A DNA stretch of 64,000 nucleotides, from assembly GCA_963850125.1 (NCBI GenBank), contig CAWKKB010000013.1:112280-176279 (forward strand), written 5' to 3'. Of this stretch, positions 5,998-45,378 are shown one piece after another. Source of the stretch: an uncultured delta proteobacterium. GTDB lineage: Bacteria > Desulfobacterota > Binatia > Binatales > Binataceae. Position 1 is the stretch's first letter. Every line of letters starts with the position of its first letter. The position numbers and the translations under genes were made by a program. The notes beneath the pieces were generated by a model. The model was not told the origin of the DNA, searched no databases, and saw only the letters and a list, made by a program, of their open reading frames with translations.

Positions 5998-6077
5998 GAT
6001 GGTTCACCTCTGTCGACGTGATCGTATCGCGACCATCGACGCTTGCCACACTCGGCGAAAATTTGGAAGCGCTCCAA

Positions 6078-6983: not shown

Positions 6984-6985
6984 GC

Positions 6986-7990: not shown

Positions 7991-8019
7991 TCGATTAGTT
8001 ATTAGCGATTAGTCAATAG

Positions 8020-11218: not shown

Positions 11219-11222
11219 CGTC

Positions 11223-12392: not shown

Positions 12393-12402
12393 CGCAACTC
12401 GC

Positions 12403-14361: not shown

Positions 14362-14371
14362 ATTTCACCCC

Positions 14372-15439: not shown

Positions 15440-16407
15440 AGTTTGCGCTCCACAACGAAGGTCGCGATATGCCGCAGCGGGTCGGCGCGATCGCCGAATC
15501 CTTGCAACGCGCGATGCGCTCGCGTTTCGAGCTCGCGCGCCAAATCCATCGAGCGCTCGACTCCAAGTATCGTTGGATAGGTCGCCTTGCCGCGCTCGAA
15601 GTCCTTTTGCGTGCGCTTGCCCATCTGCTCGGGCGTGCCCTGAACGTCGAGCAAGTCATCGACGACCTGAAACGCGAGCCCGAGCGCGCGTGCATACGCG
15701 TCGAGCGACTCGATTTGCGACGCACTCGCACCTCCGAGCCGCGCACCGCCGCGCACCGACGCCAGGAACAGCGCGCCAGTCTTTTTACCGTGCAGTTCTT
15801 CGAGCTCCTCGACCGTTTTCGACTTGCCTTCGCCGAGCAGATCAATCACCTGCCCCGCGACCATCCCGCTTGATCCAGCTGCCGTCGCGAGCTCCGCGAC
15901 AGTCTCGAGCACCAGCGCGGGCGACATGCTTTTTTCCGCCGATAGCGCGAGCACCTTGAATGCGTCCGTCAGCAGCGCGTCGCCCGCGAGCGTCGCGATC
16001 GCTTCGCCGTAAACCTTGTGATTGGTCGGGCGTCCGCGCCGCATATCATCGTCGTCCATGCACGGCAGGTCGTCGTGAATCAGCGAGTAGGTGTGAATCA
16101 TCTCGACCGCGCACGCGAGACCCATCGCCGCTTCGACCTTGCCGCCCACCGCTTCGCACGACGCGAGCACTAGCACCGGCCGCAAGCGCTTGCCGCCGGC
16201 TAGCAGCGAATAGCGCATCGCCTCGTGCAAGCGAGCCGCGGCACCGGTTGGCTCCTCGACGCTCCGCCTGAGCGCCCGCTCGATCAAATCGGCGCGCTGC
16301 TTCAAATAGCTGTGCAAGTCGAACACGTCTCGTCTCTTATCCAGATACTGTGGCGGGTTACCGTAATTTTCCGCGCGCGAAGATTCTTCGCTACGCGAGG
16401 GGTTCAT
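15436..16407 (-). CDS. ispA: Polyprenyl diphosphate synthase (FPP/GGPP synthase, trans-IPPS)
   Basis: 323 aa. First DDxxD LIHDDLPCMDDDDMRRG and second FQVVDDLLD motif. Chain length and gene name are not determinable from sequence alone. Confidence 0.8.
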   Translation of the reverse strand: MNPSRSEESSRAENYGNPPQYLDKRRDVFDLHSYLKQRADLIERALRRSVEEPTGAAARLHEAMRYSLLAGGKRLRPVLVLASCEAVGGKVEAAMGLACAVEMIHTYSLIHDDLPCMDDDDMRRGRPTNHKVYGEAIATLAGDALLTDAFKVLALSAEKSMSPALVLETVAELATAAGSSGMVAGQVIDLLGEGKSKTVEELEELHGKKTGALFLASVRGGARLGGASASQIESLDAYARALGLAFQVVDDLLDVQGTPEQMGKRTQKDFERGKATYPTILGVERSMDLARELETRAHRALQGFGDRADPLRHIATFVVERKL

Positions 16408-16426
16408 CGCCTGGCTGCGCGATTCC

Positions 16427-17431
16427 TCACGCCACGTAATGCCGCACCATGCGCCACGAGTCTTTCAGATTCTTGCCAAACTCGAGCGCCACCGTCCCCT
16501 CGAATCCCGAATGCAGCTTGCAGTCACGGCAGCGGAAATCCTGCTTGGTGCGATAGTACTCCCAATCCGTCGCCGCATGCATCTCGTCGAGCGTCTTGTA
16601 GTGACCGTTGGTGATCAGGTAGCAGGGCCCCTTCCATCCTTGCGGATTGCGGGTGATCGTCGTCCACGGACTGCACTGCATGTCGCGCTTACCGACCAGG
16701 TAGTCAAGGTAAATTGGCGTGTTGATAATCTTATAGTCGTTCGCCATGTCGCGAACCTTGAAGAACTTCGCCGGCATCTCTTCCTTCTTCAGATATTCTT
16801 CGTCGTTCTGCAGCACCTGGTAGTGATAGCCGGGACTCAGCAGCATCCCGTCGACGCCGAGGCTGGTCAGGTACTTGACCATGTCCTCGAGCTCCTGCCC
16901 CGTGGTCTCGCGGAAGACCGTGGTGTTGGTCTGCACGCGGTAGCCCTTCTCCTTCAGCATCTTGATCATCTTCACGACGATGTCGAAATGCCCCACCCGA
17001 TCGGTCACGCGATCATTGGTCTCGCGCATCCCGTCCAGATGCAGGTTGAAGCTGAGATATGGACTCGGCGGCACCTGCTTGACGAATCGCTCGAGCAGAA
17101 TCGCGTTGGTGCATATCATCACGTGACGCTTCTGATCCTCGATAAGCCCGCGCGTCAGCGCCGCGATATGCTTGTACATCAGCGGCTCGCCCCCGCAGAT
17201 CGACACGATTGGCGCGCCGGCCTCCTCGGCCGAATGCAGCGCCTCGTCGAGCGGCATCATGTCGCGGATGGTGTCCTTGTACTCGACGATTCGCCCACAT
17301 CCGATACACGCGAGGTTGCACGCATGCAGCGGTTCGAGCATCAGCACCAGCGGAAAATATTTCTCGCCCGCCCGCTTCTTCGCGCGCATGTAGCGGCCAA
17401 GATCGATCATCTGTCTCAATGGAATGCGCAT
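16427..17431 (-). CDS. hpnH: Radical SAM adenosyl-hopene transferase HpnH
   Basis: 334 aa. CxxxCxxC cluster motif (ACNLACIGCGRI) near the N-terminus. Size and cluster context match HpnH. Confidence 0.8.
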   Translation of the reverse strand: MRIPLRQMIDLGRYMRAKKRAGEKYFPLVLMLEPLHACNLACIGCGRIVEYKDTIRDMMPLDEALHSAEEAGAPIVSICGGEPLMYKHIAALTRGLIEDQKRHVMICTNAILLERFVKQVPPSPYLSFNLHLDGMRETNDRVTDRVGHFDIVVKMIKMLKEKGYRVQTNTTVFRETTGQELEDMVKYLTSLGVDGMLLSPGYHYQVLQNDEEYLKKEEMPAKFFKVRDMANDYKIINTPIYLDYLVGKRDMQCSPWTTITRNPQGWKGPCYLITNGHYKTLDEMHAATDWEYYRTKQDFRCRDCKLHSGFEGTVALEFGKNLKDSWRMVRHYVA

Positions 17432-18352: not shown

Positions 18353-19420
18353 TTAACTATCTGATTTTACGGTGGAAACAGGGGTTTCGATCGCAATGCC
18401 GTTGTTAACAGAAGAATTCAGGGCCGCCTCGATTAGCAGCAGTGCAACACGGGCCTGTGTCAGATTGCGCCTTGCTATCGGAGAATCGGTTCCTTCGGTC
18501 ACCGCTCGCTCGAACTCCTCGGCCACACCCCCGAACCACGCCGAATGATAAGAGTCGTCGGCCATGTCCGCGACCGAAAGGTCCTCGGGCTTGCCAGACC
18601 GTTCCGTGAGGAACACTCGATCCCCTTCGATTTCGAGACTCGCTCGCTCTCCATATATGAGGGCCGAGGTTCTCCGCACCGGGGCGCGCCACGACAAGTG
18701 TGCCCGGCCGATCGCACCATTCGCGAACCTGATTCGCACGTCGGCCAGGTCGTCAACGTCCGAACCTGCCGGGGATTCGAGCAGAGCCGAAACCGAGAAC
18801 GGCGTCTGCTCGTTCAGCAGCCAGGACATCAAGTAGAAAACATGCCACCCATGATCGATCAAAATACCGCCGCCCGATGCGGCTGACGAACGCCACTGGC
18901 CACCGCTACCGCCAGCCCCGGCGGGCTCGCTCCGGAGGCGATCGATCGAAATGAAGCGAATCGCGCCGAGACTGCCAGCCTCGATCGCTTTGCGTGCAGC
19001 CGCGTAGGCAGGCGCGTATTTCCAGTTGTGCACGCACATCAACACTCGCCGCTTTTCCGCTGCCAGCCCCGCAAGCTCGTCGAACTCGCCCAGCGAAAGC
19101 GCGAGCGGCTTCTCGACCAGCACGTGCGCGCCCGCCGCCAATGCCGCCCGCGCGGCCTCGTGATGCAACCCCGGAGGACTGGCGACATCCACAAAATCTG
19201 GAGCCTCGCCATCGAGCATCAATTCGAGGTCGTCGTAAACGCGGACACTCTTGATAAGACGGATCGCCTCGTGCCGCCGCTGCGAGACGGGATCGTGAAT
19301 CGCGCCGACAGTGATATTTTCGCGCGTACGCCACCCGGGGAGGTGTGCGCGGGCGGCAACCTCGCCAAATCCCGAAATTGCACCGCGCAATTTTGCTCGA
19401 CTCGCCATCAGCGCCGACAA
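18353..19420 (-). CDS. Gfo/Idh/MocA family NAD(P)-dependent oxidoreductase
   Basis: 355 aa. N-terminal Rossmann fold and the EKPLA motif (VLVEKPLALS) diagnostic of the family. Confidence 0.75.
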   Translation of the reverse strand: MSALMASRAKLRGAISGFGEVAARAHLPGWRTRENITVGAIHDPVSQRRHEAIRLIKSVRVYDDLELMLDGEAPDFVDVASPPGLHHEAARAALAAGAHVLVEKPLALSLGEFDELAGLAAEKRRVLMCVHNWKYAPAYAAARKAIEAGSLGAIRFISIDRLRSEPAGAGGSGGQWRSSAASGGGILIDHGWHVFYLMSWLLNEQTPFSVSALLESPAGSDVDDLADVRIRFANGAIGRAHLSWRAPVRRTSALIYGERASLEIEGDRVFLTERSGKPEDLSVADMADDSYHSAWFGGVAEEFERAVTEGTDSPIARRNLTQARVALLLIEAALNSSVNNGIAIETPVSTVKSDS

Positions 19421-20867: not shown

Positions 20868-22289
20868 TCAGTTGCTTCTCACCACGGCGGGCGGCTTCCA
20901 CGAGCCGGTCAGCGCCGCGTCTTTCGGCCAGTACAGCCGCATCACTACGTAAATCGGGCCGTCCGGAGCCGGCAGCCAGTTCGTTTCGTTGTCCGCTCCG
21001 GGCGAGTCTTTCTGCAGGTAAATGGTCATCGAGCCGTCAGCGTTCTTCTTCAGGTCCGGCAGCATCGCCGAGTTAATCAGGTACCGATGGAGTGGATTCT
21101 TGACCAGCAACTGTGTCTTGCCGTCGTACATGGTCACCGACCAGAACGCGTTCACTGGAGGCAGCGCTCCAGCGTGGAACGTCAGGGTGTAACGGTTCGT
21201 GCCGCAATTCGGTTTCTTGCCGCGGCTGTCGGTGGCGAGCAACGGATATAACGCCTCGGCCGCGTCATTGCCGTAGATTCCCGCCATCGCGGCGGCAGCG
21301 CGGCGCGTCCAGTTGCCAGCGAACGAATCGCGATTACCGAAGCCGCTGGTCGACACGCGCCAGCCATTCTCAATCCGGCCGAAAGTTCCGAGTTCCTCCT
21401 GTATCTGGTACATCCCGTTCTTGATGCCCATTTCGATTGCGGACGTTCCTCCCGGCGTATTGGGGGAGAAAGGCTTGCCCGCTTCAATCCCGATCCTGGC
21501 GAATCGCTCGCGCATTGGAATCTCCACTGCTGCGGGGCCAGTCGCCGGACAGAATTGCAGAATGAAGCTCAGGTAGGTGAAAGGACCTGCGTCCGCTTTT
21601 CTTTTGTCGATCTTTGGCCACTTGATCGCGGCAGCCGGCGGCGGTGCGGCTTTATGCTGGAACTTCGAAAGCGGCTCACCGCGATACCCCGCTTGGATCT
21701 TCTTCACGTTTTCGAGATCGCTGGCGTTGAATAGCTGCGTGCGGATTAGTCCGATCGAGAATTCCGTCTCGCTGTGGAACACCTTTGAGATGCCTTCGGG
21801 CTTGTCGCCCGTCCAGCCAGGCCCGGAGATCATGTAGCAGCCGGCGCCGTTACCCGTCGTGCGGCTGCCGATGTAGCCGTAGTTGAAGGTGTACCAATCG
21901 ACTAACTGAATGGAAAAATACCGCGGCTTCTCAATCTCCGGATTGCACAAAACATACGGCTCGGTCCGCAGATCCATCGCGACAAACGAGTACGGCGTGT
22001 CGCTGTTGGGTGTGACGACCGCAGTGTCCGCCGGCGTATAGACGCGGGCCGTGTTGTAGAGCGTGTTAATCGGACCTTTGTATTCGGGCGACGATTTGTC
22101 GATCCAGTACTGGTAGAAGACGGCGTAGTTCATAACGAGAGGCAGGCCGTAAACGAACGCCTCGCCGGCGATAAGGGTTGGCCAGTCGTTGCCGGCCTGT
22201 GCATAAGCTGGATGATCCGATTCCAGCGTCGCCATACTTATGGCAACGACGAGCGCCATCACTGCCGTTTTGAACATCTTGTTCGGCAA
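20868..22289 (-). CDS. Secreted DUF1254/DUF1214-like protein
   Basis: 473 aa. N-terminal signal peptide MFKTAVMALVVAISMATLES. Architecture resembles two-domain DUF1254+DUF1214 proteins. Assignment from memory of family features only. Confidence 0.4.
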   Translation of the reverse strand: MPNKMFKTAVMALVVAISMATLESDHPAYAQAGNDWPTLIAGEAFVYGLPLVMNYAVFYQYWIDKSSPEYKGPINTLYNTARVYTPADTAVVTPNSDTPYSFVAMDLRTEPYVLCNPEIEKPRYFSIQLVDWYTFNYGYIGSRTTGNGAGCYMISGPGWTGDKPEGISKVFHSETEFSIGLIRTQLFNASDLENVKKIQAGYRGEPLSKFQHKAAPPPAAAIKWPKIDKRKADAGPFTYLSFILQFCPATGPAAVEIPMRERFARIGIEAGKPFSPNTPGGTSAIEMGIKNGMYQIQEELGTFGRIENGWRVSTSGFGNRDSFAGNWTRRAAAAMAGIYGNDAAEALYPLLATDSRGKKPNCGTNRYTLTFHAGALPPVNAFWSVTMYDGKTQLLVKNPLHRYLINSAMLPDLKKNADGSMTIYLQKDSPGADNETNWLPAPDGPIYVVMRLYWPKDAALTGSWKPPAVVRSN

Positions 22290-22370: not shown

Positions 22371-22844
22371 CTACCAGCCGAAGAAATCTTTCGCTGCGAC
22401 GAACTTAGCGATCCCGGCTGCTTCACCTGCGAGTCTGTCGACTTCCTGATCGCCGACCATCGTCGACGACGTCAGGTCGACGCCGTACAAATCCGCCAGT
22501 TCCGTGATCATGCCACCCTTGGGCTTGCGGCATTCGCAGTTGTCGTCGTCTGTGTGCGGACAGATTTGCCATCCGGTCAGAATATCGCCGAGCTGATGGT
22601 CAAGCTGCGCGAGAGCTGCTTCGACTTTTTCCACTTTGAGACGGCCGCGCGTGATTCCCGCCTGGTTGGTGACGATAAACATCAGATGGTTGTGCAGCGG
22701 GCGTAGCTTGTCGGCGACGTTGGGCAGCAGTTCGATTACGATGTTACCGTTAGCGTCGAGCGGAATTTCTCGCGACTCGTTCAGCTTGACCAGGGTGCCG
22801 CCTAGATCGAAGAACAGCGCCGCGTTGCCATTCGGATTGGCCAT
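22371..22844 (-). CDS. HAD-IIIA phosphatase, GmhB/HisB-N-like (D,D-heptose-1,7-bisphosphate phosphatase family)
   Basis: About 157 aa from MANPNGNAALFFDLGGTLV. FFDLGG nucleophile motif, IVTNQAGITRG, Zn-binding ICPHTDDDNCECRKPKGGMI and MVGDQEVD match the GmhB signature blocks. The ORF-track start (22931) overlaps the upstream aminotransferase; the internal Met at 22844 is more plausible. Confidence 0.7.
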   Translation of the reverse strand: MANPNGNAALFFDLGGTLVKLNESREIPLDANGNIVIELLPNVADKLRPLHNHLMFIVTNQAGITRGRLKVEKVEAALAQLDHQLGDILTGWQICPHTDDDNCECRKPKGGMITELADLYGVDLTSSTMVGDQEVDRLAGEAAGIAKFVAAKDFFGW

Positions 22845-22860
22845 CGAAAAAAGATCTCGC

Positions 22861-24231
22861 TTATGCGTGATGCCAGTCAACGTGGTCACGAACGTGCGCG
22901 AACACTTCGTCCAGGATTTCGACGCCGGCATCCGCCTGCGCTTCAGTGATTACAAGCGACGGGTTGATACGAATCTTGGGAAAGTAGGCCATCGTGATCA
23001 GACCGCGCTTGAGGCATTCGGCGAAGATCAGCTCGGTGACTTTCTTGCCGAGCAGTTCCTTGGTTTCGAGATCGCGCACGAGCTCGACCCCAATAAGTAG
23101 TCCCTTGCCGCGTACGTCGCCGATGAATTCGTACTTTTCCTTGAGCTGCACCAGGCGTGAGAGCATCATCGCGCCCACTTTGCGCGAGTTCTCGACCAGA
23201 TGCTCTCGCTGAATCGCGCCGATCGTTTCCGAGACCGCAACTGCCGCGAGCGGATTTCCGCCGTAACTCGACGACGACGCGCTCGGCTTACCGAACGGCT
23301 CCGCCTTGCCCAGCTCGTCGCTCAGCAGCACGCCCGAGACCGGGAATCCCGAGCCCATGCCTTTCCCGACGGTGACGATATCCGGACGGACGCCGCTATG
23401 CTCGACGCCCCACCATTTCCCGGTACGTCCGAAGCCGGTGATCATTTCGTCAGCTATCAGCAGCGCGCCGAAATCCTTGGCGACGGATTTGACCGCGGGC
23501 ATCCAGTCGTCGGGCGGAATCACATTGCCAGCCGTGCCCTGCATCGGCTCGGCGACGATCGCAGCGAGCGCCCCGCTGGAACTCATCTTGATTTGCTGAC
23601 GCGCGAAATCGACACAGTAAAGACCGCAGTCGGGATATTTCAACTTGAACGGACATCGGTAGCAGTCAGCATACGGCACCGTGTATTGCCCGCCCTGCAA
23701 AGGTCCGTAGCCTTGCTTCGATTCGTCGCCGATAAGTCCGAGGACGCCGCCGGTCTTGCCGTGGAACCCGCCCCAAAAACTCACCGCTTCATGATGGCCG
23801 GTTGCGGAGCGCGCCAGCCTGAGGGCGGCTTCGACCGCCTCCGCGCCGCCGCTGTACAGATGCGCGCGATTCAATCCGGCGGGCGCGACTTCGGCCAGCG
23901 CCTTGAACGCAGCCGCACGCTCTTTGGTCGCGAAGGTGCCGACTGTCAACCGCGACGCCTGGTTCGACAGCGCTTGCGCCATCCCCGGATGCGCATGACC
24001 CAAACTCGCGACCGCCACGCCCGCAAAAAAATCCACGTAGGTGTTGCCGTCGGCGTCGGTGAGAGTCGCGCCTTCGCCGTGGTCGAAAGCGAGGCCGGCG
24101 AGCAGCGAGATTCGCTGGCGGCCGGGCGCGATATATTTTTGTTCGAGGTCGAAGATCTCTTTCGACTTGGGTCCTGGAACTGGAGTCTTGATCGAGGGAA
24201 GTTTTCCGTTGGTGGTCGTCGTGGTCTTCAA
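22861..24231 (-). CDS. Class III PLP-dependent aminotransferase (acetylornithine/ornithine/GABA-aminotransferase family; HpnO-like)
   Basis: 456 aa. Fold-type I aminotransferase class III blocks: GNTYVDFFAGVAVASLGH, LLIADEMITGFGRTGKWW, TVGKGMGSGFP (Lys in TVGK). Confidence 0.85.
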   Translation of the reverse strand: MKTTTTTNGKLPSIKTPVPGPKSKEIFDLEQKYIAPGRQRISLLAGLAFDHGEGATLTDADGNTYVDFFAGVAVASLGHAHPGMAQALSNQASRLTVGTFATKERAAAFKALAEVAPAGLNRAHLYSGGAEAVEAALRLARSATGHHEAVSFWGGFHGKTGGVLGLIGDESKQGYGPLQGGQYTVPYADCYRCPFKLKYPDCGLYCVDFARQQIKMSSSGALAAIVAEPMQGTAGNVIPPDDWMPAVKSVAKDFGALLIADEMITGFGRTGKWWGVEHSGVRPDIVTVGKGMGSGFPVSGVLLSDELGKAEPFGKPSASSSSYGGNPLAAVAVSETIGAIQREHLVENSRKVGAMMLSRLVQLKEKYEFIGDVRGKGLLIGVELVRDLETKELLGKKVTELIFAECLKRGLITMAYFPKIRINPSLVITEAQADAGVEILDEVFAHVRDHVDWHHA

Positions 24232-24274: not shown

Positions 24275-25096
24275 CTAACGCGGCCGGCCTAGCAGACTTA
24301 TCGCACGGCGCGCGATCGCGCGAGCGGCCGGGCCGCGCACCCGGCTATAGCTGGGCCAGTCGTTAAAATCGATAATCGCAAAACGGTCTCCACCCAGGAC
24401 TGCGTCTCCGCCCCACGCCTCGAGGCCGAGCGCGGCCGCCGCGGCAGAAGCTGCGTCAGACAGCGCGCGCACGGCGGCCTCGGGAACTTCCTCGTCCTCC
24501 GGATGCACGCTGAAATGCGAATTGCCGCTGACGCCGTAAAATTTCACGACGCGGCCGACGACTTCCTGCTGAACGTACGCGAAGCGAACTCCGCGCTGCG
24601 CGAAATCGGCGAGAATCGACTCGACCTGCGCGCGATCGGCCGCGCGCTGCACGTCTTCGGGCGCGAGCGCATGCAAATCTCCGCGCTTCACGAACACGCC
24701 CGCCGACAAGTCCAGCCCGGCAAGCTTGCGCGCATCGAGCGGCTCGTCCGCGGGAATCAGCGCGCCGACCGGAGTCGGTACTCCGGCGCGCTCGAGGCCG
24801 GGCGCGAGTAAATCGCGATAGCAGTTGCGAATCGAGAGCGCGGAGTTGATCGCAATCGCACCCGCCTGCTCGACGGCGGCCAGCCGCTTGAGTGCGCGCG
24901 GGCCTTGGCACATCGGCAGCACGAGATCGGCGCGCGGGGTTGGTCCCGCCGCAAAGTTGACCGCGTCCACGGTCTGGATATCGAGGCCCTCGCGCTTCAG
25001 CTCCGCCATCGTGGCATCGAGAATCGCGGCGTCGGCTTCGACCTTGCCCGGTGAGAACTCGGGTTCCCGATAAATTCCCAAAGCTTTGTGGCTCAT
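24275..25096 (-). CDS. ATP-grasp-like ligase (RimK-like, divergent)
   Basis: 273 aa. Block AINSALSIRNCYRDLLAPGLERAGVPTP resembles the RimK pre-ATP-grasp/ATP-grasp junction (INS..AIR.C.DKL.T.QLL...GIPVP). C-terminal IIDFNDWPSYS resembles the E/D-x-N..P Mg-binding loop. Low-identity call. Confidence 0.45.
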   Translation of the reverse strand: MSHKALGIYREPEFSPGKVEADAAILDATMAELKREGLDIQTVDAVNFAAGPTPRADLVLPMCQGPRALKRLAAVEQAGAIAINSALSIRNCYRDLLAPGLERAGVPTPVGALIPADEPLDARKLAGLDLSAGVFVKRGDLHALAPEDVQRAADRAQVESILADFAQRGVRFAYVQQEVVGRVVKFYGVSGNSHFSVHPEDEEVPEAAVRALSDAASAAAAALGLEAWGGDAVLGGDRFAIIDFNDWPSYSRVRGPAARAIARRAISLLGRPR

Positions 25097-25818
25097 GGCA
25101 TCTTCCGTATTGCGAGGCGCGCGGCGTCGAGGTCCGACGCTTCATCCACGTCGATCGATCCTTCAATCTCGATCGCATCCAGCCGCATCCCGCGTTCTAT
25201 GAGCATCGCAAGGAAGCGGCGGAGCGCGTCGAGTCCCGCGCGGCGCGCGTCGGCGGCGTACTCGAAAATTCGGGTCGACAGGAAATAAAGTCCTGCCGTC
25301 ATCATAGAAGTGTGACGGTTGCCCAGCCCGATGATCAACCCATTCCCTGTTACATCTGCGAAAAGTGGCTTGAGCTCGCCGCGCCATCGCGACACGGCCA
25401 GCACACCGCTCAGGTTTTTGTCGCCACAATCCTCGATTTTCCGCCGCGACTCATTAACAAACCGCACCAATTCTTTCAGCGGAATTACGGCGTCTACCGT
25501 CGATGCGACAAACCATCCCGGCTCGAGTACATCGGCCAATGCGAGCATCGTTTCCATCGAGTTGGCAGTATCGCGAACGACGAAACGCGCCGACGGCGGC
25601 ATCTCAAGCGCCATCTCGCCCGCAATCCGCGCCGTCTCCGAATTGATCACCGCCACCACCGACGATGCTCCCGCGTCGAGCAGTGCGCGCGCCTGTCGCG
25701 AGAGCATCGCCTCGCCGCCCAAAATGACCAGCGGCTTTGGAGTGTCGTCGCGCGTCGAGATGCGCAGGCGCTCGCCACGGCCGGCGGCAATAATCGCTCC
25801 TTGCAATTTGGTCACCAT
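25093..25818 (-). CDS. Sugar-phosphate/alcohol-phosphate nucleotidyltransferase (NTP_transferase fold; HddC/LicC/MurU-like size)
   Basis: 241 aa. G-x-G-x-R-L signature AIIAAGRGERLR followed by KPLVILGGEAML. Overlaps the neighbouring genes by 4-7 nt, consistent with operon coupling. Confidence 0.7.
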   Translation of the reverse strand: MVTKLQGAIIAAGRGERLRISTRDDTPKPLVILGGEAMLSRQARALLDAGASSVVAVINSETARIAGEMALEMPPSARFVVRDTANSMETMLALADVLEPGWFVASTVDAVIPLKELVRFVNESRRKIEDCGDKNLSGVLAVSRWRGELKPLFADVTGNGLIIGLGNRHTSMMTAGLYFLSTRIFEYAADARRAGLDALRRFLAMLIERGMRLDAIEIEGSIDVDEASDLDAARLAIRKMP

Positions 25819-26540
25819 TGAATCTGCGCAACTTCGTCGATGCTTCGTATCGTCACGTCAGTGGCGGCTGAATCTTTACCGGATCGCGGTTCGGTGCACA
25901 GCCATACTGTCCGCATGCCTAGTTTTCGCGCGGGTGCGCAATCCTTGCCCAGCGAATCCCCAATCATCGCGACCGAACTTGCCGCGCATTGTATTTTCTT
26001 CAAGGCGGCCTCGAAGATGCGTACGTCAGGTTTGAAAATTCCGACGCGCGATGAATCAGCGACCGAGGTGAAGAATCGATCGAGCTTTGCTTCCTCGAGA
26101 ACGCGGTCTAGGTTCCCATAGAAATTAGACACAACGCCCATCTTGAAGCGGTTTTTGAGCGGGCCGACGACGTCGCGACTGTGCGCAAGACCTGCTGACG
26201 TTTCGCGAACGAAGAAATTCGTCACAACCTCGACGAATCGATGGCGTCCCGCGGCGCTGGAATCATCCAAGGTCGCACGAAGCGCGTCGGGACCACTCTT
26301 GCGCAGGTATTCGAACTGATGCCCTACCAGGAACCGCACCAGGTCCATCAATCCGAAGCGCGCGACTATCCTGGTCGCGCCGTAGCCGATTCGCGTCGCG
26401 TGATCGAAGGCGGGGTCGAGCTCGTTCCGGGTGATTTCAACGCCTGCCGCGCTGTAGCTCGCCAGGAATCGGTCGAGCCAGTGCGCAGGCCCGTCGAGGG
26501 TGCCTCCGAAATCGAACAGGAGAGCGGTAATCGGGGCCAT
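25812..26540 (-). CDS. HAD-superfamily hydrolase (phosphatase/phosphomutase-like)
   Basis: 242 aa. Motif I LLFDFGGTL (DxG), plus internal GDSLGKD-type motif III (MIGDSLGKD). Confidence 0.65.
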   Translation of the reverse strand: MAPITALLFDFGGTLDGPAHWLDRFLASYSAAGVEITRNELDPAFDHATRIGYGATRIVARFGLMDLVRFLVGHQFEYLRKSGPDALRATLDDSSAAGRHRFVEVVTNFFVRETSAGLAHSRDVVGPLKNRFKMGVVSNFYGNLDRVLEEAKLDRFFTSVADSSRVGIFKPDVRIFEAALKKIQCAASSVAMIGDSLGKDCAPARKLGMRTVWLCTEPRSGKDSAATDVTIRSIDEVAQIQW

Positions 26541-26755: not shown

Positions 26756-27952
26756 TTGATCGAAACCGCTCTAATCGCTGCACCTGACCGCGCGGATAAT
26801 GCGGTCTTCGGCCGTCCGCTGTTAGAGCGGCTGATGATTAATTGCGAGCGCGCCGGGATTAAGCGGTTCGTCATCGCGGCGCCGCGCGAGCGTTATTCGG
26901 ATGTCGCGCGCGCGATGGGCCGGTTCAAAAACAGCGACTCGGTCGCGATGGTCGAGTCGTTCGGCGAGATTCTGAATCAGCGGACTGCACAGGAATTGGG
27001 CATCGACCCACTATTGCCGTGCGTGTCCTTTTCGGGAAACCTGGTATTTGCCAAGTCGCAACTGGCGCGAATCCTTGACGCGCACGCCTCCAATCCGAAA
27101 TCGGTACATCGGGCGATCAGCACTGACCATGACCGTGGCGGTGAAATCGCGACTGGTGCGATCGGCGAGATTCTCAAGCGTGGCGGGATTTCGACCCCTG
27201 TTCCTGCATCTGCTGCGAGCCTCCTGCCCTTTGCCCTGAACGGTCGTCCCGAAGATCGGGAGGAAGCCGAATTGCGGCTGGCGAAATCGATTCGCGAGGA
27301 GTCGGCGCACAAGGACGCGCCGATGGCGCGATGGGTCGACCGGCGCATTTCGTGGCGCATCAGCTATTGGCTCGCGTCGCATACGCGCGCAACGCCGAAC
27401 ATGATCACGGTCGCGAACACGATGTTCGGGCTGGCGACTGCGTGGATGTTTTCGGTGCCGAACTACTGGATGCGGCTGTTCGCGGCGATTTTCTTTTTGA
27501 TTTCGATCACGATCGATGGCGTCGACGGCGAGTTGGCGCGGCTCAAGATGGTTGAGAGCGATTTCGGCGGCGCGCTGGACGTAATCACCGACAATGTCGT
27601 CCACGCCGCCGTGTTCATCGGCTTGCTGGTCGGATGTTACAGGGTCGAGCATAGCCGCGCTTACCTTTACCTGATTCCAATCCTGCTGGGCGGATTTGCG
27701 ATGTGCGCTTATGCGACGTGGCGCGCATTTAAGATAAAAGGCGCGCGCGCGGCGGAATGGTTGGACAAGGTCGATCGATGGAGCGGGCGCGATTTCGCCT
27801 ATTTGCTCGTGGTATTGGCTCTAATCAATCGGCTAGAGTACTTCGCTTGGGGAACAGCGTTCGGTACTTACCTGTTCGCCCTGGGGCTGATATGGATTGC
27901 CGGCCGGACCGAATCGTCAATGAAGCCTGAAGAGTCTGCAGGAATAAGTTGA
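26756..27952 (+). CDS. Bifunctional-architecture protein: N-terminal nucleotidyltransferase-like (GT-A/NTP_transferase-like, signature degenerate) domain fused to C-terminal CDP-alcohol phosphotransferase membrane domain (IPCT/DIPPS-like organisation)
   Basis: 398 aa. Perfect CDP-alcohol phosphatidyltransferase motif D-G-x2-A-R-x8-G-x3-D-x3-D in DGELARLKMVESDFGGALDVITD, followed by 3-4 TM helices. N-terminal about 200 aa has ALIAAPDRADNAVFGRPLL instead of the canonical G-x-G-T-R-L. Confidence 0.7.
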   Translation: MIETALIAAPDRADNAVFGRPLLERLMINCERAGIKRFVIAAPRERYSDVARAMGRFKNSDSVAMVESFGEILNQRTAQELGIDPLLPCVSFSGNLVFAKSQLARILDAHASNPKSVHRAISTDHDRGGEIATGAIGEILKRGGISTPVPASAASLLPFALNGRPEDREEAELRLAKSIREESAHKDAPMARWVDRRISWRISYWLASHTRATPNMITVANTMFGLATAWMFSVPNYWMRLFAAIFFLISITIDGVDGELARLKMVESDFGGALDVITDNVVHAAVFIGLLVGCYRVEHSRAYLYLIPILLGGFAMCAYATWRAFKIKGARAAEWLDKVDRWSGRDFAYLLVVLALINRLEYFAWGTAFGTYLFALGLIWIAGRTESSMKPEESAGIS

Positions 27953-27971: not shown

Positions 27972-29303
27972 ATGAACGGCAAGAAGCCACGAATTCTCCT
28001 GGTGCAACCCACGACCGTCCATCTGGACGGCACACCGCACAAAACGCGATGGCGGCTGATCATGGGCCTCATGATTCCGCTGATGGCCGGACTGACGCCC
28101 GACGACTACGACGTGACGCTGTGCGACGAACGCCTCGAGGACATCAACTTCGATGGCGGATGGGACCTGGTCGGCATGACGACAACGATCGGCGCGTCGC
28201 TGCGCGCGTACCAGCTCGGCGACGAGTTCCGCAAACGCGGAATCCCGGTGGTGTTCGGCGGCTTCCATGCAACCTTGCAGACCGAAGAAGCGCTCCATCA
28301 TTGCGACGCGGTCGTGAAGGGAGAGGCCGACCTGGTGTGGCCCGAGCTGCTGCAGGACTGGCGTGACGGCAAGCTCAAGACGATTTACAAAGCCGACAAA
28401 GTGCACGATCTGAAAAACCTGCCGCGACCGCGGCATGAACTGCTCAAGCTGAATCGCTACCTGTTCAAAGCGGTGCCCGTGCAGGCGAGCCGCGGATGCC
28501 CGTATCGATGTTCGTTCTGCGAGATTCCGGTGTTCTACGACGGCGCATATCGCACGCGGCCCATCGAGGACATCGTCGAAGAGATCAAGCAGGTCATGAA
28601 GGTGACCGGCTTCAGGCGCTTTCAGTTCATCGACGATCAGATTACCGGCAAGCACAAGTTCGCGCGCGAGCTGTTCAAGGCGCTCGAGCCGCTCAATATC
28701 CGTTTCTCCTGCCTGTGGACCATCAATTCGAATCACGACGACGAGTTGCTGGACCTCGCGGCGAAGGCGGGAATTTTCCACGTCAACATCGGGGTGGAAT
28801 CGATCAGCCAGGACAGCCTGCTGTCGATGAACAAGATTCAGAATCACGCCGGGCAGTACAAGAAGCTGCTCAAGAAGCTCGAAAAATACGGAATCTATTA
28901 TTCGCTCAACTTCCTGTTCGGGCTGGAAGAGGATCATCCGGGAATTTTCGACGACACGCTGAAGTTCCTGCACGAGGTCAAGGCGCCCGAGGCGTTCTTC
29001 AACACCGTTACGCCGCGCGTCGGCACTCCGATGCGCACGCAGCTCGAGAACGAAGGCCGCGTGATAATCCCCGACGCCGATTTGTACACCAACAACTTCC
29101 GCTGCATGTTCGTGCCGAAAAACATGTCGCCGCAGGAAGTCGAAGAAGGCGTGTGGCGATGCACCAAGGAGTTCTACTCGCTCAAGTCGATGTTCAAGCG
29201 TCTGCTGATGCCGCCGGGAAAGTTCACCTGGCAGGGCCTGACCGAGAACATGCTCTTCTACTGGGGCGCGAAGCGGCAGATCGATCCGGTTGATTATTAT
29301 TAG
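27972..29303 (+). CDS. B12-binding-domain radical SAM enzyme (class B rSAM; HpnJ/HpnP/HpnR-like or other)
   Basis: 443 aa. N-terminal cobalamin-binding Rossmann-like region (RILLVQP...VVFGGFHATL). CxxxCxxC cluster ASRGCPYRCSFCEI. C-terminal extension resembling the DUF4070-type tail of class B rSAMs. Confidence 0.8.
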   Translation: MNGKKPRILLVQPTTVHLDGTPHKTRWRLIMGLMIPLMAGLTPDDYDVTLCDERLEDINFDGGWDLVGMTTTIGASLRAYQLGDEFRKRGIPVVFGGFHATLQTEEALHHCDAVVKGEADLVWPELLQDWRDGKLKTIYKADKVHDLKNLPRPRHELLKLNRYLFKAVPVQASRGCPYRCSFCEIPVFYDGAYRTRPIEDIVEEIKQVMKVTGFRRFQFIDDQITGKHKFARELFKALEPLNIRFSCLWTINSNHDDELLDLAAKAGIFHVNIGVESISQDSLLSMNKIQNHAGQYKKLLKKLEKYGIYYSLNFLFGLEEDHPGIFDDTLKFLHEVKAPEAFFNTVTPRVGTPMRTQLENEGRVIIPDADLYTNNFRCMFVPKNMSPQEVEEGVWRCTKEFYSLKSMFKRLLMPPGKFTWQGLTENMLFYWGAKRQIDPVDYY

Positions 29304-29432: not shown

Positions 29433-29747
29433 TTGATCTTAAAGACGCTCGCGGTGCTAGTGCTCGCCGCGCTGCTCGAGGTCGGCGGCGATGCGCTCGT
29501 CCGGATAGGACTGCACACCTACGGCTACTCGCTGGCAGCCGGCGCATTTGCGCTGTTCGCGTACGGAATCCTGGTCAATCAAAGTGGCGTCGATTTCAAC
29601 CGCCTGATGGGAATCTACATCGCGATCTTCTTCGTGGTGTCGCAGGTGATCTCGTTTCTGTTCTTCAAGCAAATCCCGGACGACAGAATAATCTTCGGCG
29701 GCGGCTTCATCGTAGCCGGCGGTCTAGTGATTCTGCTGATGACGTGA
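29433..29747 (+). CDS. Small 4-TM membrane protein, YnfA/UPF0060-like (DMT-superfamily-like)
   Basis: 104 aa with four hydrophobic helices. Length and Gly-rich last helix (FGGGFIVAGGLVILL) resemble E. coli YnfA. Confidence 0.45.
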   Translation: MILKTLAVLVLAALLEVGGDALVRIGLHTYGYSLAAGAFALFAYGILVNQSGVDFNRLMGIYIAIFFVVSQVISFLFFKQIPDDRIIFGGGFIVAGGLVILLMT

Positions 29748-29858: not shown

Positions 29859-30704
29859 CTACGGATTGAGCACGACGTTGTCGATTAGGCGCGTCTTGCC
29901 GACGCGGGCGGCTATTGCGATCAGGATTGGGCGATCGAGCGACGGATGACGCGCTAGCGTCTCGGCGTCCACTGCTTCTACGTATTCGATCTCGACGCCT
30001 TTCATTCGTTTGAGCACGCGAGTCGCCGCGAACACTACTTCCTCGGCACAGCATGGGTGGGTGCGATGCTTCTCGCGGGCGGCCCGCAGGGCGAGGCTCA
30101 GCGCGAGGGCCTCTTCGCGCTCAGTCGGCGAGAGATAAGCGTTGCGCGAGCTCATCGCGAGGCCGTCTTTTTCGCGCACAATTGGCACCGGCAGAATCTC
30201 GACTTCGAAGTTCAGGTCGCGGACCATTTTCTGGATCGCGCGGAGCTGCTGGAAATCTTTCTCGCCGAAGACCGCAAGATGCGGTTTGACGATGTTGAAC
30301 AGTTTGGCGACCACCGTCGTTACGCCGCGGAAGTGCCCGGGGCGATGCGCGCCGCAGAGGCCCATGGTGATGTCGCCGGCGTCGACCCAGCTCTGCGCGT
30401 CGGGCGAGTACATCGCAGCGGGCTCGGGCGCGAAGACGACATCCACCGGTACCGTCTGGAGCATCGTGCAGTCGCGCTCGAAGTTGCGCGGGTAGCGCGC
30501 GAAGTCCTCGCCGGGACCGAACTGCGTCGGATTGACGAAGATCGACGCGACCAGAACCGACGACCGGCGGCGGCCCTCGCGCATCAGGGTGAGATGGCCG
30601 TCGTGCAGAAATCCCATCGTCGGCACGAGCCCGATTCGTTCACTACATTTGACCGCATCACGGGAGAAACGGGTCATCTCGTCGGGCGAGGTGATAGTGA
30701 TCAT
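29859..30704 (-). CDS. panC: Pantoate--beta-alanine ligase (pantothenate synthetase)
   Basis: 282 aa from MITITSPDEM. Motifs GLVPTMGFLHDGHLTLM (HIGH-like), FVNPTQFGPGEDF, AVFGEKDFQQL. The ORF-track version carries a spurious 113-aa Arg-rich N-extension. The real ATG overlaps the panB stop (ATGA). Confidence 0.9.
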   Translation of the reverse strand: MITITSPDEMTRFSRDAVKCSERIGLVPTMGFLHDGHLTLMREGRRRSSVLVASIFVNPTQFGPGEDFARYPRNFERDCTMLQTVPVDVVFAPEPAAMYSPDAQSWVDAGDITMGLCGAHRPGHFRGVTTVVAKLFNIVKPHLAVFGEKDFQQLRAIQKMVRDLNFEVEILPVPIVREKDGLAMSSRNAYLSPTEREEALALSLALRAAREKHRTHPCCAEEVVFAATRVLKRMKGVEIEYVEAVDAETLARHPSLDRPILIAIAARVGKTRLIDNVVLNP

Positions 30705-31549
30705 CGCGAGGCCCTCTTCGATTCGGCGTAGCAATGTTCCGCTGCCGGGAACGCGCGCTCCTTCACTTCGCGCACGTACGCGCTGGTTGCCGCCGACGCC
30801 TCGTTCCACAGATGCGCGAACGGCTTGGCGAAGCGCGGTGCGCACGATTCGAAAAGGCCGAGCATGTCGTGCATCACGAGCACCTGGCCATCGCAATCGG
30901 GACCGGCGCCGATGCCAATAGTCGGGATTGAGACGCTGGCAGTTATCTCGCGCGCCAGCGACGGCGGCACGCCCTCGACCACGATCGCGAATGCGCCCGC
31001 GGCCTCGAGTGCGGCGGCATCTTCGAGCAGGCGCTCGCGGCATCCGGCGGCGCGGCCGGATTTGCGGCCCTGCACCCGATGTCCGCCCATCCGATGTATC
31101 GACTGCGGCGTCAGCCCGACGTGGCCCATCACAGGAATATCGACGGCCGCAATCCTCGCGACCGCATCGGCAATCGCGAGGCCGCCTTCGAGCTTCACTG
31201 CCTCCGCGCCGCCTTCCTTGACCAGACGGCCGGCGTTGCGCAGCGCGTCTTCAGGGCTCACCTGATACGAGAGAAACGGCATGTCGGCGACGATCAGTGC
31301 GCGGCGCCGTGCGCGTGCGACCGCACGAGTGTGGTAGATGACCTCTTCGATGGTGACTGCCAGCGTCGTGTCCTCGCCGCGCACCGCCATTCCGAGGCTA
31401 TCGCCGATGAGGAGCACGTCGACACCGCAGTTGTCGAAAATTCTCGCGAATGGGAAATCGTACGCGGTGAGCATCGTGATCGGCTGGCGCGCAGCCTTCA
31501 TGCGCGCGAGATCGGGCACGCGAACTTTGTCTTGCGTCATATTCTTCAA
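30701..31549 (-). CDS. panB: 3-methyl-2-oxobutanoate hydroxymethyltransferase (ketopantoate hydroxymethyltransferase)
   Basis: 282 aa. ITMLTAYDFPFARIFDNCGVDVLLIGDSLGM signature. Confidence 0.9.
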   Translation of the reverse strand: MKNMTQDKVRVPDLARMKAARQPITMLTAYDFPFARIFDNCGVDVLLIGDSLGMAVRGEDTTLAVTIEEVIYHTRAVARARRRALIVADMPFLSYQVSPEDALRNAGRLVKEGGAEAVKLEGGLAIADAVARIAAVDIPVMGHVGLTPQSIHRMGGHRVQGRKSGRAAGCRERLLEDAAALEAAGAFAIVVEGVPPSLAREITASVSIPTIGIGAGPDCDGQVLVMHDMLGLFESCAPRFAKPFAHLWNEASAATSAYVREVKERAFPAAEHCYAESKRASR

Positions 31550-33944: not shown

Positions 33945-34715
33945 CTAGCGTCGGTTGCGCTCAAATATCAGCCGGAGACCTTTTAATGTCAAAAACTCGT
34001 CGACCTCTTCAATCGTTTCGCTTTCGGGCGCGATAAGGTCGGCGAGACCGCCGGTTGCGATGACCCGCGCCTTTTCGCCGCGCTCCTTCAGGATGCGGCC
34101 GACGAGACCGTCCACCAACGCGGTGTATCCAAAGATAAGCCCCGACTGAATCGAGCCCACAGTGGTGCGGCCGACAGCCTCGCGCGGGCGCACCAGCTCG
34201 ACGCGATAGAGCTTCGCGGCGTGCTCGATCAACGCGTTCATCGAAACGCCAAGGCCTGGCGCGATTGCCCCGCCGGCGTACTCGCCCTTGCCGGTCACGT
34301 AGTCGAACGTGGTGGCGGTGCCGAAATCGACGACGATGGTTGCGCATGAGTAGCGTTCGTAAGCGGCGACCGCGTTGACGATTCGATCGGCGCCCACTTC
34401 CTTGGGATTTTCGTAAAGGATCGGCATCCCGGTTTTAATTCCCGGACCGACCATCAGAGGGGTGCAATGGAAGTAGCGCTCGGCGAGTTGCTCCATCACC
34501 TGGTTGAGCGGAGGAACCACGCATGCAATCGCAACGCCTTCGGGCCTGACGCCGCCCTCGAGGCCGTCGCCCGCGAGAAGCGTATTGAGCAACGCGCCAT
34601 GCTCGTCGGTCGTGCGATCGGGAACGGTCGAGATGCGCCAGTGATTGCGCAGCCGCTCGCCTTCGTAGATTCCAATCACGGTATGGCTGTTGCCGACATC
34701 AACCGTTATCAGCAT
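33945..34715 (-). CDS. coaX: Type III pantothenate kinase
   Basis: 256 aa. N-terminal MLITVDVGNSHTVIGIY, DRIVNAVAA and the GTATTFDYV acetate/sugar-kinase fold motifs typical of CoaX. Confidence 0.85.
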   Translation of the reverse strand: MLITVDVGNSHTVIGIYEGERLRNHWRISTVPDRTTDEHGALLNTLLAGDGLEGGVRPEGVAIACVVPPLNQVMEQLAERYFHCTPLMVGPGIKTGMPILYENPKEVGADRIVNAVAAYERYSCATIVVDFGTATTFDYVTGKGEYAGGAIAPGLGVSMNALIEHAAKLYRVELVRPREAVGRTTVGSIQSGLIFGYTALVDGLVGRILKERGEKARVIATGGLADLIAPESETIEEVDEFLTLKGLRLIFERNRR

Positions 34716-40191: not shown

Positions 40192-40196
40192 TCCGC

Positions 40197-43045: not shown

Positions 43046-43276
43046 CCTATTTACGCCAGCGCCCAGCCATCAAACGTTCATCTTTCCATATGGGTTAACA
43101 GGCATGACGATATGGAGCGTCCGAAATTTCACAGAATCCCTTCAGCCAGCGTGCCGCAGGAGAAAATCCCGCGCGCAATCAGGGCCCGCGATGGGCATGT
43201 AGGTTGCTTTCCCATCAAGGCCACGTTTTCACCCCGCCCGCGCGCACGTGCCTCTCAGGATTGTTGAGGATTTGAT

Positions 43277-45172: not shown

Positions 45173-45378
45173 TCGCGAACGACGAGCAACTCGCGGGTGG
45201 AAGATCTCCAGTGCTACCGATTCAAGAAAGAGGTTTCGCATCACTCTGCGACGGTTCCCTGGTTGCCTCAATCTTCTAAATGATCTTGGCTTGAATAGTA
45301 TGTAGTGTAGTGACTGACTGACGGACCGCATCTGTGGCCGAAACTTAAACTCGAAATCCCCGGTAATCCTGGTCGGCG

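Follow-up and report, generated by a model that had tools for sequence, protein, structure and literature searches.

An AF2299-type CDP-alcohol phosphotransferase with a degenerate nucleotidyltransferase-like domain and its conserved gene cluster in Binataceae

How would a membrane enzyme with an intact cytidine diphosphate (CDP)-alcohol phosphotransferase motif obtain its activated donor if the cytidylyltransferase-like domain fused to it has lost the nucleotide-binding signature? This question is raised by a gene (the target) located in a 64,000-nucleotide (nt) stretch of DNA, referred to here as the window, from an uncultured delta proteobacterium of the family Binataceae (GenBank assembly GCA_963850125.1, contig CAWKKB010000013.1, positions 112,280 to 176,279 of the forward strand). 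A first interpretation made from the letters of the window without database searches (the sequence-only reading) described the product as a fusion similar to the bifunctional IPCT/DIPPS enzymes and assigned the activation step to a separate nucleotidyltransferase. Our analysis covers 80 species-level loci taken from GTDB genomes, almost all of them Binataceae, and gene counts refer to the loci with enough flanking sequence. It indicates that the target is probably a transferase of the AF2299 type (after AF2299 of Archaeoglobus fulgidus), in which a dead N-domain serves as a scaffold and the donor is activated in trans by the stand-alone nucleotidyltransferase of the divergent operon. The parts of the target gene are listed below with their window coordinates, strand and, in parentheses, the basis of the description.

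26756..27952, plus strand: AF2299-type CDP-alcohol phosphotransferase gene, 398 residues, TTG start
26756..27184, plus strand: N-domain, residues 1–143, predicted truncated and catalytically degenerate nucleotidyltransferase (GT-A-like) fold with beta-alpha-beta order (AlphaFold2 model, Foldseek)
26777..26812, plus strand: vestigial nucleotide-binding loop AAPDRADNAVFG (translation, alignment A8)
27035..27040, plus strand: G94-N95 in SGNLVF (hhalign, MAFFT, family alignments)
27221..27295, plus strand: linker LLPFALNGRPEDREEAELRLAKSIR (profile alignment with 4mnd)
27311..27382, plus strand: juxtamembrane helix KDAPMARWVDRRISWRISYWLASH (sequence and profile alignment)
27515..27592, plus strand: CDP-alcohol phosphotransferase signature DGVDGELARLKMVESDFGGALDVITD (translation)

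The two halves of the target protein

The target open reading frame (ORF) is laid out as a degenerate nucleotidyltransferase-like N-domain followed by a linker, a juxtamembrane helix and six predicted transmembrane helices, and homologues with 73–91% identity to the target come from metagenome-assembled genomes of Candidatus Binatus and Binataceae. The only Pfam match is CDP-OH_P_transf (residues 213–363, E 6.6e-15, 56.3 bits against a cutoff of 22). As the sequence-only reading had stated, the phosphotransferase motif is complete: DGVDGELARLKMVESDFGGALDVITD holds the full eight-residue signature D-x2-D-G-x2-A-R-x8-G-x3-D-x3-D, and its residues D254, D257, G258, A261, R262, G271, D275 and D279 are all invariant in alignment A3. 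Helices are placed by AlphaFold2 at residues 191–209, 214–232, 237–265, 269–298, 302–326, 330–356 and 360–388, with moderate confidence in the membrane half. By its signature, Pfam score and six-helix core the target is a class-I CDP-alcohol phosphotransferase (PF01066), an assignment made at the level of sequence and model.

AF2299 is the first match of the target in a single-sequence search of the PDB (E 1.4e-14, 56.9 bits), and a profile of the membrane half retrieves AF2299 (E 2.3e-29, 105.9 bits), DIPPS (E 3.3e-18, 69.1 bits) and the phosphatidylinositol-phosphate (PIP) synthases (E 5e-9 or weaker, at most 38.8 bits). The juxtamembrane motif (DAPMARWVDRRISWRIS) is common to the target, AF2299 (DGWIAREINRKVSLRISRLLA) and DIPPS (DGFISRKINRKISTRIS). 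For AF2299 and DIPPS, the pocket that receives the donor has been reported to be small and hydrophilic and to accommodate a soluble CDP-alcohol (PMC4634129). The membrane half of the target would bind a CDP-linked donor together with a divalent metal, transfer the substituted phosphate to an acceptor hydroxyl and release cytidine monophosphate.

The N-domain gives no Pfam match even at E = 10, the NTP_transferase/GT-A-like families PF00483 and PF12804 included, and no NCBIfam match. An AlphaFold2 model of residues 1–150, computed from 28 family members, is a beta-alpha-beta sandwich with a predicted local distance difference test score (pLDDT) of 88.6 and a predicted TM score of 0.85. Nucleotidyltransferases, mostly cytidylyltransferases, make up 48 of its 50 best PDB matches in Foldseek, and these matches include IspD, KdsB (CMP-KDO synthetase), TarI, HddC, GlmU and RmlA (E 4e-5 to 2e-3, TM scores of 0.5–0.6, identity 10–17%). 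The GT-A architecture proposed from the letters alone is therefore upheld by the predicted model, and an unrelated fold such as a CBS domain did not emerge. The model of the full-length protein is less confident than that of the N-domain (pLDDT 64.6); its first PDB match is IPCT-DIPPS 4mnd (TM score 0.58) and the next is AF2299 4o6m (TM score 0.47–0.56), with both domains covered in each case.

Real enzymes have AAGRGERLRISTRDDTPKPLVILGG at the position of the nucleotide-binding loop, whereas in the target about 13 residues are deleted there, G-x-G-x-R and the lysine of the PK motif among them. This was seen in a MAFFT alignment (A8) of the target, two distant relatives, AF2299, one AF2299 relative and two stand-alone nucleotidyltransferases of the cluster: strand 1 is aligned as ALIA / AYVK / AIIA, a 13-column gap in the Binatia family and in AF2299 and its relative lies precisely opposite AGRGERLRISTRD of the stand-alone enzyme, and the alignment picks up again at GRPLLER / GLTLRER / GEAMLSR. 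The register given by hhalign for the N-domain against the stand-alone nucleotidyltransferase is the same. G-x-G-x-R is absent from every sequence inspected (the N-termini of 77 of the 80 species loci and 25 cluster representatives in alignment A2). In the same comparisons SGNLV pairs with TVDAV, which places N95 opposite the metal-binding Asp (D109) of the stand-alone enzyme; Asn occupies this position in nearly all family members and a few relatives keep GD instead of GN. The loop quoted in the sequence-only reading is thus real, and the loss of the signature that it had described persists upon proper alignment.

Deletions are also evident elsewhere in the N-domain, which has about 145 residues compared with 220–250 in working enzymes, the lobe that binds the alcohol-phosphate being gone. 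The linker stretch LNGRPEDREEAELRLA, in which P158 is invariant in A3, aligns by profile with VDTKEDVRRANRALV, the last IPCT-domain helix of A. fulgidus IPCT-DIPPS (4mnd), and therefore appears to be a remnant of the C-terminal end of a nucleotidyltransferase. Because the linker matches the end of the IPCT domain, the N-domain looks like a nucleotidyltransferase with P-loop and internal deletions and not like an N-terminal fragment. It probably represents a relic of the cytidylyltransferase domain of bifunctional IPCT/DIPPS enzymes, and it is predicted to be unable to make a CDP-alcohol because nothing remains of the G-x-G-x-R...K loop or the substrate lobe and Asn has replaced the metal-binding Asp.

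The degenerate N-domain is kept under purifying selection and is not decaying (dN/dS, the ratio of nonsynonymous to synonymous substitution rates, is 0.18 here and 0.13 in the membrane part). Residues R20, R25, C30, R32, G34, V97 and G134 are invariant in alignment A4, and GN, D124 and G129 are nearly so. A phmmer search with the N-domain against 1.84 billion representatives gave 73 matches. Each full-length match examined is a fusion with a CDP-alcohol phosphotransferase domain, and none of the 73 was seen to retain an intact loop from which the course of degeneration could be traced. One distant relative (P0165) has a sub-threshold match to NTP_transf_3 (20.1 bits, E 8e-4).

These data bear on the possibility that the N-domain still functions as a nucleotidyltransferase by means of non-canonical residues, in which case the protein would be truly bifunctional as IPCT/DIPPS and its neighbour redundant. 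The retained fold, the invariant Arg20 and Arg25 under purifying selection, and the few relatives that keep Asp at the GN position and at the 'ALD' position of the linker speak for such an activity. However, the P-loop and its lysine are deleted rather than substituted, almost every member has Asn in place of the metal-binding Asp, the second lobe is gone and the match to the IPCT/DIPPS equivalog (79.6 bits against 580) leaves the N-half unmatched, and we consider this explanation very unlikely.

The degenerate loop lies in a segment whose translation depends on the TTG start. Among 73 orthologues the summed column entropy of codons 2–27 is 18.3, 8.6 and 36.8 at codon positions 1, 2 and 3, whereas the 78 nt located 5′ of the start are flat (46.8, 46.8 and 47.3). 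The start position is TTG or GTG in 58 of these orthologues and ATG in one, and the N-terminal peptide IETALI...FGRPLLERL is kept in relatives with as little as 44% overall identity. The coding-type entropy, the shared start site and the conserved peptide indicate that the N-terminal 26 residues are translated; in addition, strand 1 sits within the sheet of the high-confidence N-domain model. Alternatively, the long ORF could be a calling artefact, with initiation at Met27 and with strand 1 and the 'degenerate loop' outside the protein. About half of the database entries are 368 residues long and begin with MINCERAG, and the Shine-Dalgarno-like GAGGGGG is placed about 25 nt 5′ of the TTG, a long spacing that counts against the upstream start and hence against the reading adopted here; in view of the codon pattern, the peptide, the start site and the position of strand 1, an artefact of this kind is extremely improbable.

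AF2299 and IPCT/DIPPS as points of comparison

AF2299 gave the CDP-alcohol phosphotransferase class its founding crystal structure, and the N-domain of the protein serves as a crystallisation chaperone. A structural precedent exists (4o6m) for an intact CDP-alcohol phosphotransferase that carries a dead cytidylyltransferase-like domain. AF2299 (4o6m, 4o6n and 4q7c; PF21682, AF_2299-like_N) is the closest solved relative of the target membrane domain and, like the target, consists of a cytidylyltransferase-like cytosolic domain of about 125–145 residues, a juxtamembrane helix and a six-helix transmembrane core. The sequence of its N-domain (MRLAYVKNHEIYGEKLLGLTLRERI..., MRLAYVKNHEIYGEKLLGLTLRERIEKTLQRAGFDVRFF...) has no G-x-G-x-R and shares with the target the deletion of this loop and the G-x-x-L-x-E/D-R start of the following helix. 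The two also differ in several respects. The target N-domain has no PF21682 match up to E = 10, while the N-domain of an Archaeoglobus relative analysed alongside scored 211 bits; the separate model of the Binatia N-domain is nearer to real cytidylyltransferases than to the AF2299 domain, and 4o6m was not among its best 50 Foldseek matches. Moreover, the Binatia family is bacterial (Binataceae) and has a stand-alone nucleotidyltransferase in its cluster, which was missing from the one Archaeoglobus-relative locus examined.

The AF2299 N-domain sequence was obtained by way of this locus (L081) and a PDB search; a sequence search with an AF2299 fragment returned only proteins of about 200 residues without the N-domain. 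In L081 the AF2299 orthologue (L081:562-1598, 77% identical) is split into two ORFs, and the PF21682 N-domain forms a separate ORF of 131 residues that ends 8 nt before the phosphotransferase ORF of 210 residues. Either the dead domain is able to act as a separate subunit or the split is an assembly frameshift.

Passages of two reports describe the AF2299 N-domain as packed on the TM2–TM3 loop and partly covering the active site (PMC4634129; PMC8633023), and a passage of the former describes higher expression of other family members onto which this domain was grafted. By analogy with the AF2299 crystal structure, the N-domain of the target may cap or scaffold the membrane domain from its cytoplasmic side, and it could also provide a docking site for the soluble nucleotidyltransferase. 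As judged from sequence and model, the loss of its catalytic loop would be nothing unusual for a pseudo-enzyme domain retained as a scaffold.

IPCT/DIPPS of A. fulgidus (AF0263, 4mnd; NF041135; EC 2.7.7.74 and 2.7.8.34) gives the best structural match for the whole target protein and shares with it the juxtamembrane motif and the last nucleotidyltransferase helix, and NF041135 is the best-scoring NCBIfam model. In contrast to the target, which lacks the catalytic loop, the Asp and the substrate lobe, its N-domain is a full-length active cytidylyltransferase. The target scores 79.6 bits against the equivalog cutoff of 580, and the match is confined to residues 184–344 (profile positions 224–376). 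By this score the target is not an IPCT/DIPPS, and the arrangement described in the sequence-only reading is not new in kind given the AF2299 precedent. The Binatia protein is better described as a bacterial variant of the AF2299-type architecture whose main value lies in its conserved cluster context.

The gene cluster and the supply of the donor

The genes surrounding the target are listed below (window coordinates, strand, description and number of loci).

25093..25818, minus strand: stand-alone intact nucleotidyltransferase of the divergent operon, 241 residues, NTP_transferase (65/69 loci)
25812..26540, minus strand: HAD-IA phosphatase, first gene of the divergent operon, overlapping the next gene by 7 nt (67/71 loci)
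24275..25096, minus strand: 273-residue protein, weakly ATP-grasp-like (62/65 loci)
22861..24231, minus strand: class-III (omega) aminotransferase-family pyridoxal phosphate enzyme (58/63 loci)
22371..22931, minus strand: HAD-IIIA phosphatase, GmhB- or histidinol-phosphatase-like (54/62 loci)
27972..29303, plus strand: B12-binding radical S-adenosylmethionine (radical-SAM) enzyme, 20 nt 3′ of the phosphotransferase gene (71/73 loci)
29433..29747, plus strand: small YnfA/UPF0060-like membrane protein (closest relatives only)
18353..19420, minus strand: GFO/IDH/MocA oxidoreductase, best family inositol 2-dehydrogenase, below its cutoff

The two HAD phosphatases, the nucleotidyltransferase, the ATP-grasp-like protein, the aminotransferase, the target and the B12 radical-SAM enzyme form a conserved cluster of seven genes. 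In three distant loci (L074–L076, 44–45% identity) the cluster is rearranged into one co-directional string in which the genes are still together, in the order HAD, nucleotidyltransferase, ATP-grasp-like protein, aminotransferase, GFO/IDH/MocA dehydrogenase, phosphotransferase and HpnL-like membrane protein; the B12 radical-SAM gene also occurs in L076. The dehydrogenase inside this string is a homologue (35% identity) of the oxidoreductase encoded at 18353–19420 of the window.

As the sequence-only reading had proposed, an intact nucleotidyltransferase is encoded separately in the divergent operon: AIIAAGRGERLR lies in the ORF at 25093–25818, which carries AAGRGERLR...PKPLV...TVD...IDVDE. Residues G13, G15, R17, K28, D223 and D225 are invariant across its family and D109 is conserved in at least 90% of the sequences. 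This enzyme is the presumed maker of the CDP-activated donor.

The remaining members of the cluster have been assigned to families with varying precision. The 273-residue protein gives no Pfam or NCBIfam match; a profile of 13 sequences matches ATP-grasp proteins weakly (RimK, LysX-like proteins, D-Ala-D-Ala ligase Ddl and ITPK1; E 0.015–0.6), and it likely represents an undescribed ATP-grasp subfamily with ligase or kinase activity. Among solved structures, the generic class-III aminotransferase is nearest to archaeal transaminases of the gamma-aminobutyrate-aminotransferase-like type and racemases. The radical-SAM enzyme scores below every curated family cutoff (BchE, ApyD, PhpK and HpnJ are weak matches) and its best solved relatives are 9ccb and AprD4. 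It is the most conserved of the three products compared, with a median identity across species of 91% versus 55% for the phosphotransferase and 52% for the nucleotidyltransferase; in one locus (L080) it is 88% identical and the phosphotransferase 44%. The YnfA/UPF0060-like protein may be a small transporter or flippase.

The aminotransferase, the ATP-grasp-like enzyme and the phosphatases probably build or finish the head group, joined in some relatives by the GFO/IDH/MocA dehydrogenase. The co-occurrence of a dehydrogenase, a transaminase, a kinase or ligase and phosphatases suggests an amino-polyol or aminocyclitol phosphate as this head group. Two other routes were considered and dropped: a di-myo-inositol-phosphate pathway, as no myo-inositol-1-phosphate synthase was seen among the 44 window ORFs scanned against Pfam (of the 85 with at least 200 residues plus a few shorter ones) and the IPCT/DIPPS equivalog test failed, and a phosphonate pathway, as no phosphoenolpyruvate mutase was seen and the PbfA and PhpK matches show only family-level resemblance.

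The intact nucleotidyltransferase of the divergent operon would supply the activated CDP-alcohol in trans, and this proposal is supported by the synteny of that gene, its intact catalytic residues and the juxtamembrane motif that the target shares with AF2299 and DIPPS. Of the division of labour put forward in the sequence-only reading, the part that assigns activation to the stand-alone enzyme fits the presence of its gene in 65 of 69 loci, while a substrate-binding role for the N-domain is unlikely given the missing lobe. A comparable arrangement has been described by Heaver et al. (2022; PMC9246714) as a putative alternative inositol-lipid cluster of Bacteroides vulgatus and Prevotella, for which a Kennedy-like route by way of a CDP-alcohol (CDP-inositol) was proposed. 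Like the Binatia cluster it contains a separate NTP transferase, a CDP-alcohol phosphatidyltransferase and a HAD hydrolase, with a gene similar to lysyl-phosphatidylglycerol synthase nearby, but it is anchored on an inositol-phosphate synthase and lacks the aminotransferase, the ATP-grasp protein and the B12 radical-SAM gene (PMC9246714). By analogy, both clusters would display the same division of labour, which is itself unproven in the Bacteroides and Prevotella case.

Several points weigh against activation in trans of a donor for an AF2299-type enzyme with a dead scaffold domain. The homology of the N-domain to nucleotidyltransferases rests on predicted structure, as the relationship is weak at the sequence level: hhalign gave a probability of 13.5% for the N-domain against the neighbouring nucleotidyltransferase family and 1.2% against the AF2299 N-domain, and a profile hidden Markov model of the N-domain (A4) searched against all PDB sequences gave chance-level matches, with no nucleotidyltransferase and no AF2299 among them. 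The conserved Arg20, Arg25, Arg32, GN, D124 and G129 could form a ligand pocket or an allosteric nucleotide site. The stand-alone nucleotidyltransferase has its best matches in GDP-heptose, UDP-MurNAc and UDP-glucose enzymes, which do not fix its nucleotide specificity. Furthermore, we infer from sequences and models, and do not show, the inactivity of the N-domain, its role as a scaffold, the origin of the donor from the neighbouring enzyme and the identity of donor and acceptor.

Some features of the cluster and its surroundings may be noted. In the window, the aminotransferase and HAD-IIIA ORFs overlap by 71 nt as listed (22861–22931), and the HAD-IIIA family match begins at about residue 38; the true start is probably further downstream of the listed one. 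The remaining junctions of the minus-strand operon overlap by 4–7 nt, which suggests translational coupling. Scanning the divergent intergenic region for promoters and terminators gave no informative signal. A gene for a DUF1254/DUF1214 protein with a signal-peptide-like N-terminus (20868–22289, minus strand) is located between the cluster and a luciferase-like monooxygenase gene; it is absent at that position in all related Binataceae loci, its sole match (48%) is found elsewhere in L074, and it looks like a lineage-specific insertion. A Sulfotransfer_3 sulfotransferase gene is present in all of L074–L076 (L074:3169-5139; L076:8479-9822), with an O-methyltransferase added in L074 and L075, which suggests additional sulfation or methylation of the head group in these lineages.

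Lipid acceptors, HpnL-like partners and the hopanoid neighbourhood

Three cluster representatives of the phosphotransferase family (P0138, P0139 and P0172) carry a C-terminal LPG_synthase_TM domain of the flippase family, one (P0158) has such a domain at the N-terminus, and a protein with this domain is encoded directly 3′ of the phosphotransferase in distant loci (L074:11305-12447; L076:11414-12427). The best family of the fused domain is HpnL (TIGR03476), with 113–131 bits against a cutoff of 195.65. As a Rosetta-stone connection with lipid translocation, these fusions suggest that the product is a lipid and is flipped across the membrane.

A lipid product raises the alternative that the target is a lipid head-group synthase which, similarly to the PIP and archaetidylinositol-phosphate synthases, uses a CDP-lipid donor (CDP-diacylglycerol or similar). 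The cluster would in that case make only the soluble phosphorylated (amino)cyclitol or polyol acceptor, with the terminal phosphate cleaved off by the adjacent HAD enzyme and the nucleotidyltransferase employed in a different step. Enzymes of the CDP-alcohol phosphotransferase class with six transmembrane helices are said to take soluble acceptors (PMC4634129), and this rule together with the HpnL-like fusions would favour a CDP-lipid donor, which is a further point against donor activation in trans. The alternative is also in line with the conserved HAD phosphatase beside the gene, with the weak similarity of the ATP-grasp-like protein to inositol-phosphate kinases, with the inositol-dehydrogenase-like best match in or near the cluster, and with the second and third NCBIfam matches of the target (archaetidylinositol-phosphate synthase, 54.5 bits; PIP synthase, 45.9 bits), both of which are below their cutoffs (170–180).

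The synthases concerned (RsPIPS 5d92 and MtPgsA1 6h59; NF045883 and NF040950) have the class-I signature and the six-helix core found in the target, and the phosphate of their product is taken off by a separate phosphatase. They are, however, much weaker matches, they have no natural N-domain and the juxtamembrane motif of the AF2299/DIPPS type did not align with them; both this motif and the membrane domain of the target are far nearer to AF2299 and DIPPS (105.9 and 69.1 bits) than to the PIP synthases (at most 38.8 bits). In addition, the persistence of the nucleotidyltransferase gene with the phosphotransferase gene, also through the rearrangement of gene order, is hard to explain if the two are unrelated. 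We therefore judge a CDP-lipid donor to be rather unlikely and favour the AF2299-type transferase supplied in trans by the stand-alone nucleotidyltransferase.

A canonical hopanoid biosynthesis cluster is located at 4446–17431 of the window and includes the following genes.

4446–5246, plus strand: HpnG-like PNP_UDP_1 phosphorylase
6986–7990, minus strand: HpnA-like epimerase
8020–9387, minus strand: HpnE-like amine oxidase
9388–11218, minus strand: two squalene-synthase-like SQS_PSY genes
11223–12392, minus strand: DXR
12403–14361, minus strand: squalene-hopene cyclase
16427–17431, minus strand: HpnH (TIGR03470, 375 bits against a cutoff of 225)
within 4446–17431: zinc-dependent alcohol dehydrogenase and polyprenyl synthase

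In about 20 Binataceae species, divergent ones among them, the phosphotransferase cluster has next to it a string of HpnH, TetR, GFO/IDH/MocA and luciferase-like monooxygenase genes; in L056 this string lies on the opposite side of the cluster, in inverted order. No hpn genes were found within 10 kb in the loci from outside Binataceae.

HpnI, HpnJ, HpnK and HpnL constitute a hopanoid side-chain module. The Binatia cluster echoes it by combining, beside hpn genes, a transferase whose donor is nucleotide-activated with a B12 radical-SAM enzyme and a membrane protein of the HpnL type. All scores against Hpn-module families are nevertheless below their cutoffs, HpnJ being a weak match of the Binatia radical-SAM enzyme (79–101 bits against 577.6), and the transferase of the module is a glycosyltransferase whereas that of the Binatia cluster is a CDP-alcohol phosphotransferase. 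The resemblance is an analogy, and the tie that it offers between the cluster and hopanoids is suggestive only. Literature searches for this gene combination, and for hopanoids together with CDP-alcohol, returned nothing relevant.

Taken further, the cluster could encode an undescribed pathway of the Kennedy type by which Binatia would link an (amino)polyol or cyclitol head group through a phosphodiester to a hopanoid polyol (e.g., bacteriohopanetetrol) or another membrane lipid, a proposal that we regard as speculative and unlikely as it stands. The stand-alone nucleotidyltransferase would make the CDP-activated head group, the AF2299-type enzyme with its dead domain as a scaffold would transfer it, the ultra-conserved B12 radical-SAM enzyme would remodel it and an HpnL-like or YnfA-like protein would flip the product. 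If correct, this route would be a phospho-analogue of that of HpnI/J/K/L and would for the first time assign a physiological role to the AF2299 class and to its dead domain. Should the product be a lipid head group, this widespread, uncultured soil phylum would possess a novel membrane lipid. The Binatia family supplies the strongly conserved genomic context that AF2299 lacks, and as a defined set of seven genes open to experiment the cluster could reveal what AF2299-type enzymes do.

On the right-hand side of the cluster the window presents an ordinary housekeeping context (29859–31549, minus strand; 33945–34715, minus strand; 37978–47394). It comprises a gene pair that we take to be putative PanC and PanB, as well as a type III pantothenate kinase, a glycogen-debranching-like enzyme, a Kelch-repeat protein, a major facilitator superfamily transporter, an ATP-binding cassette exporter and a GlgE maltosyltransferase.

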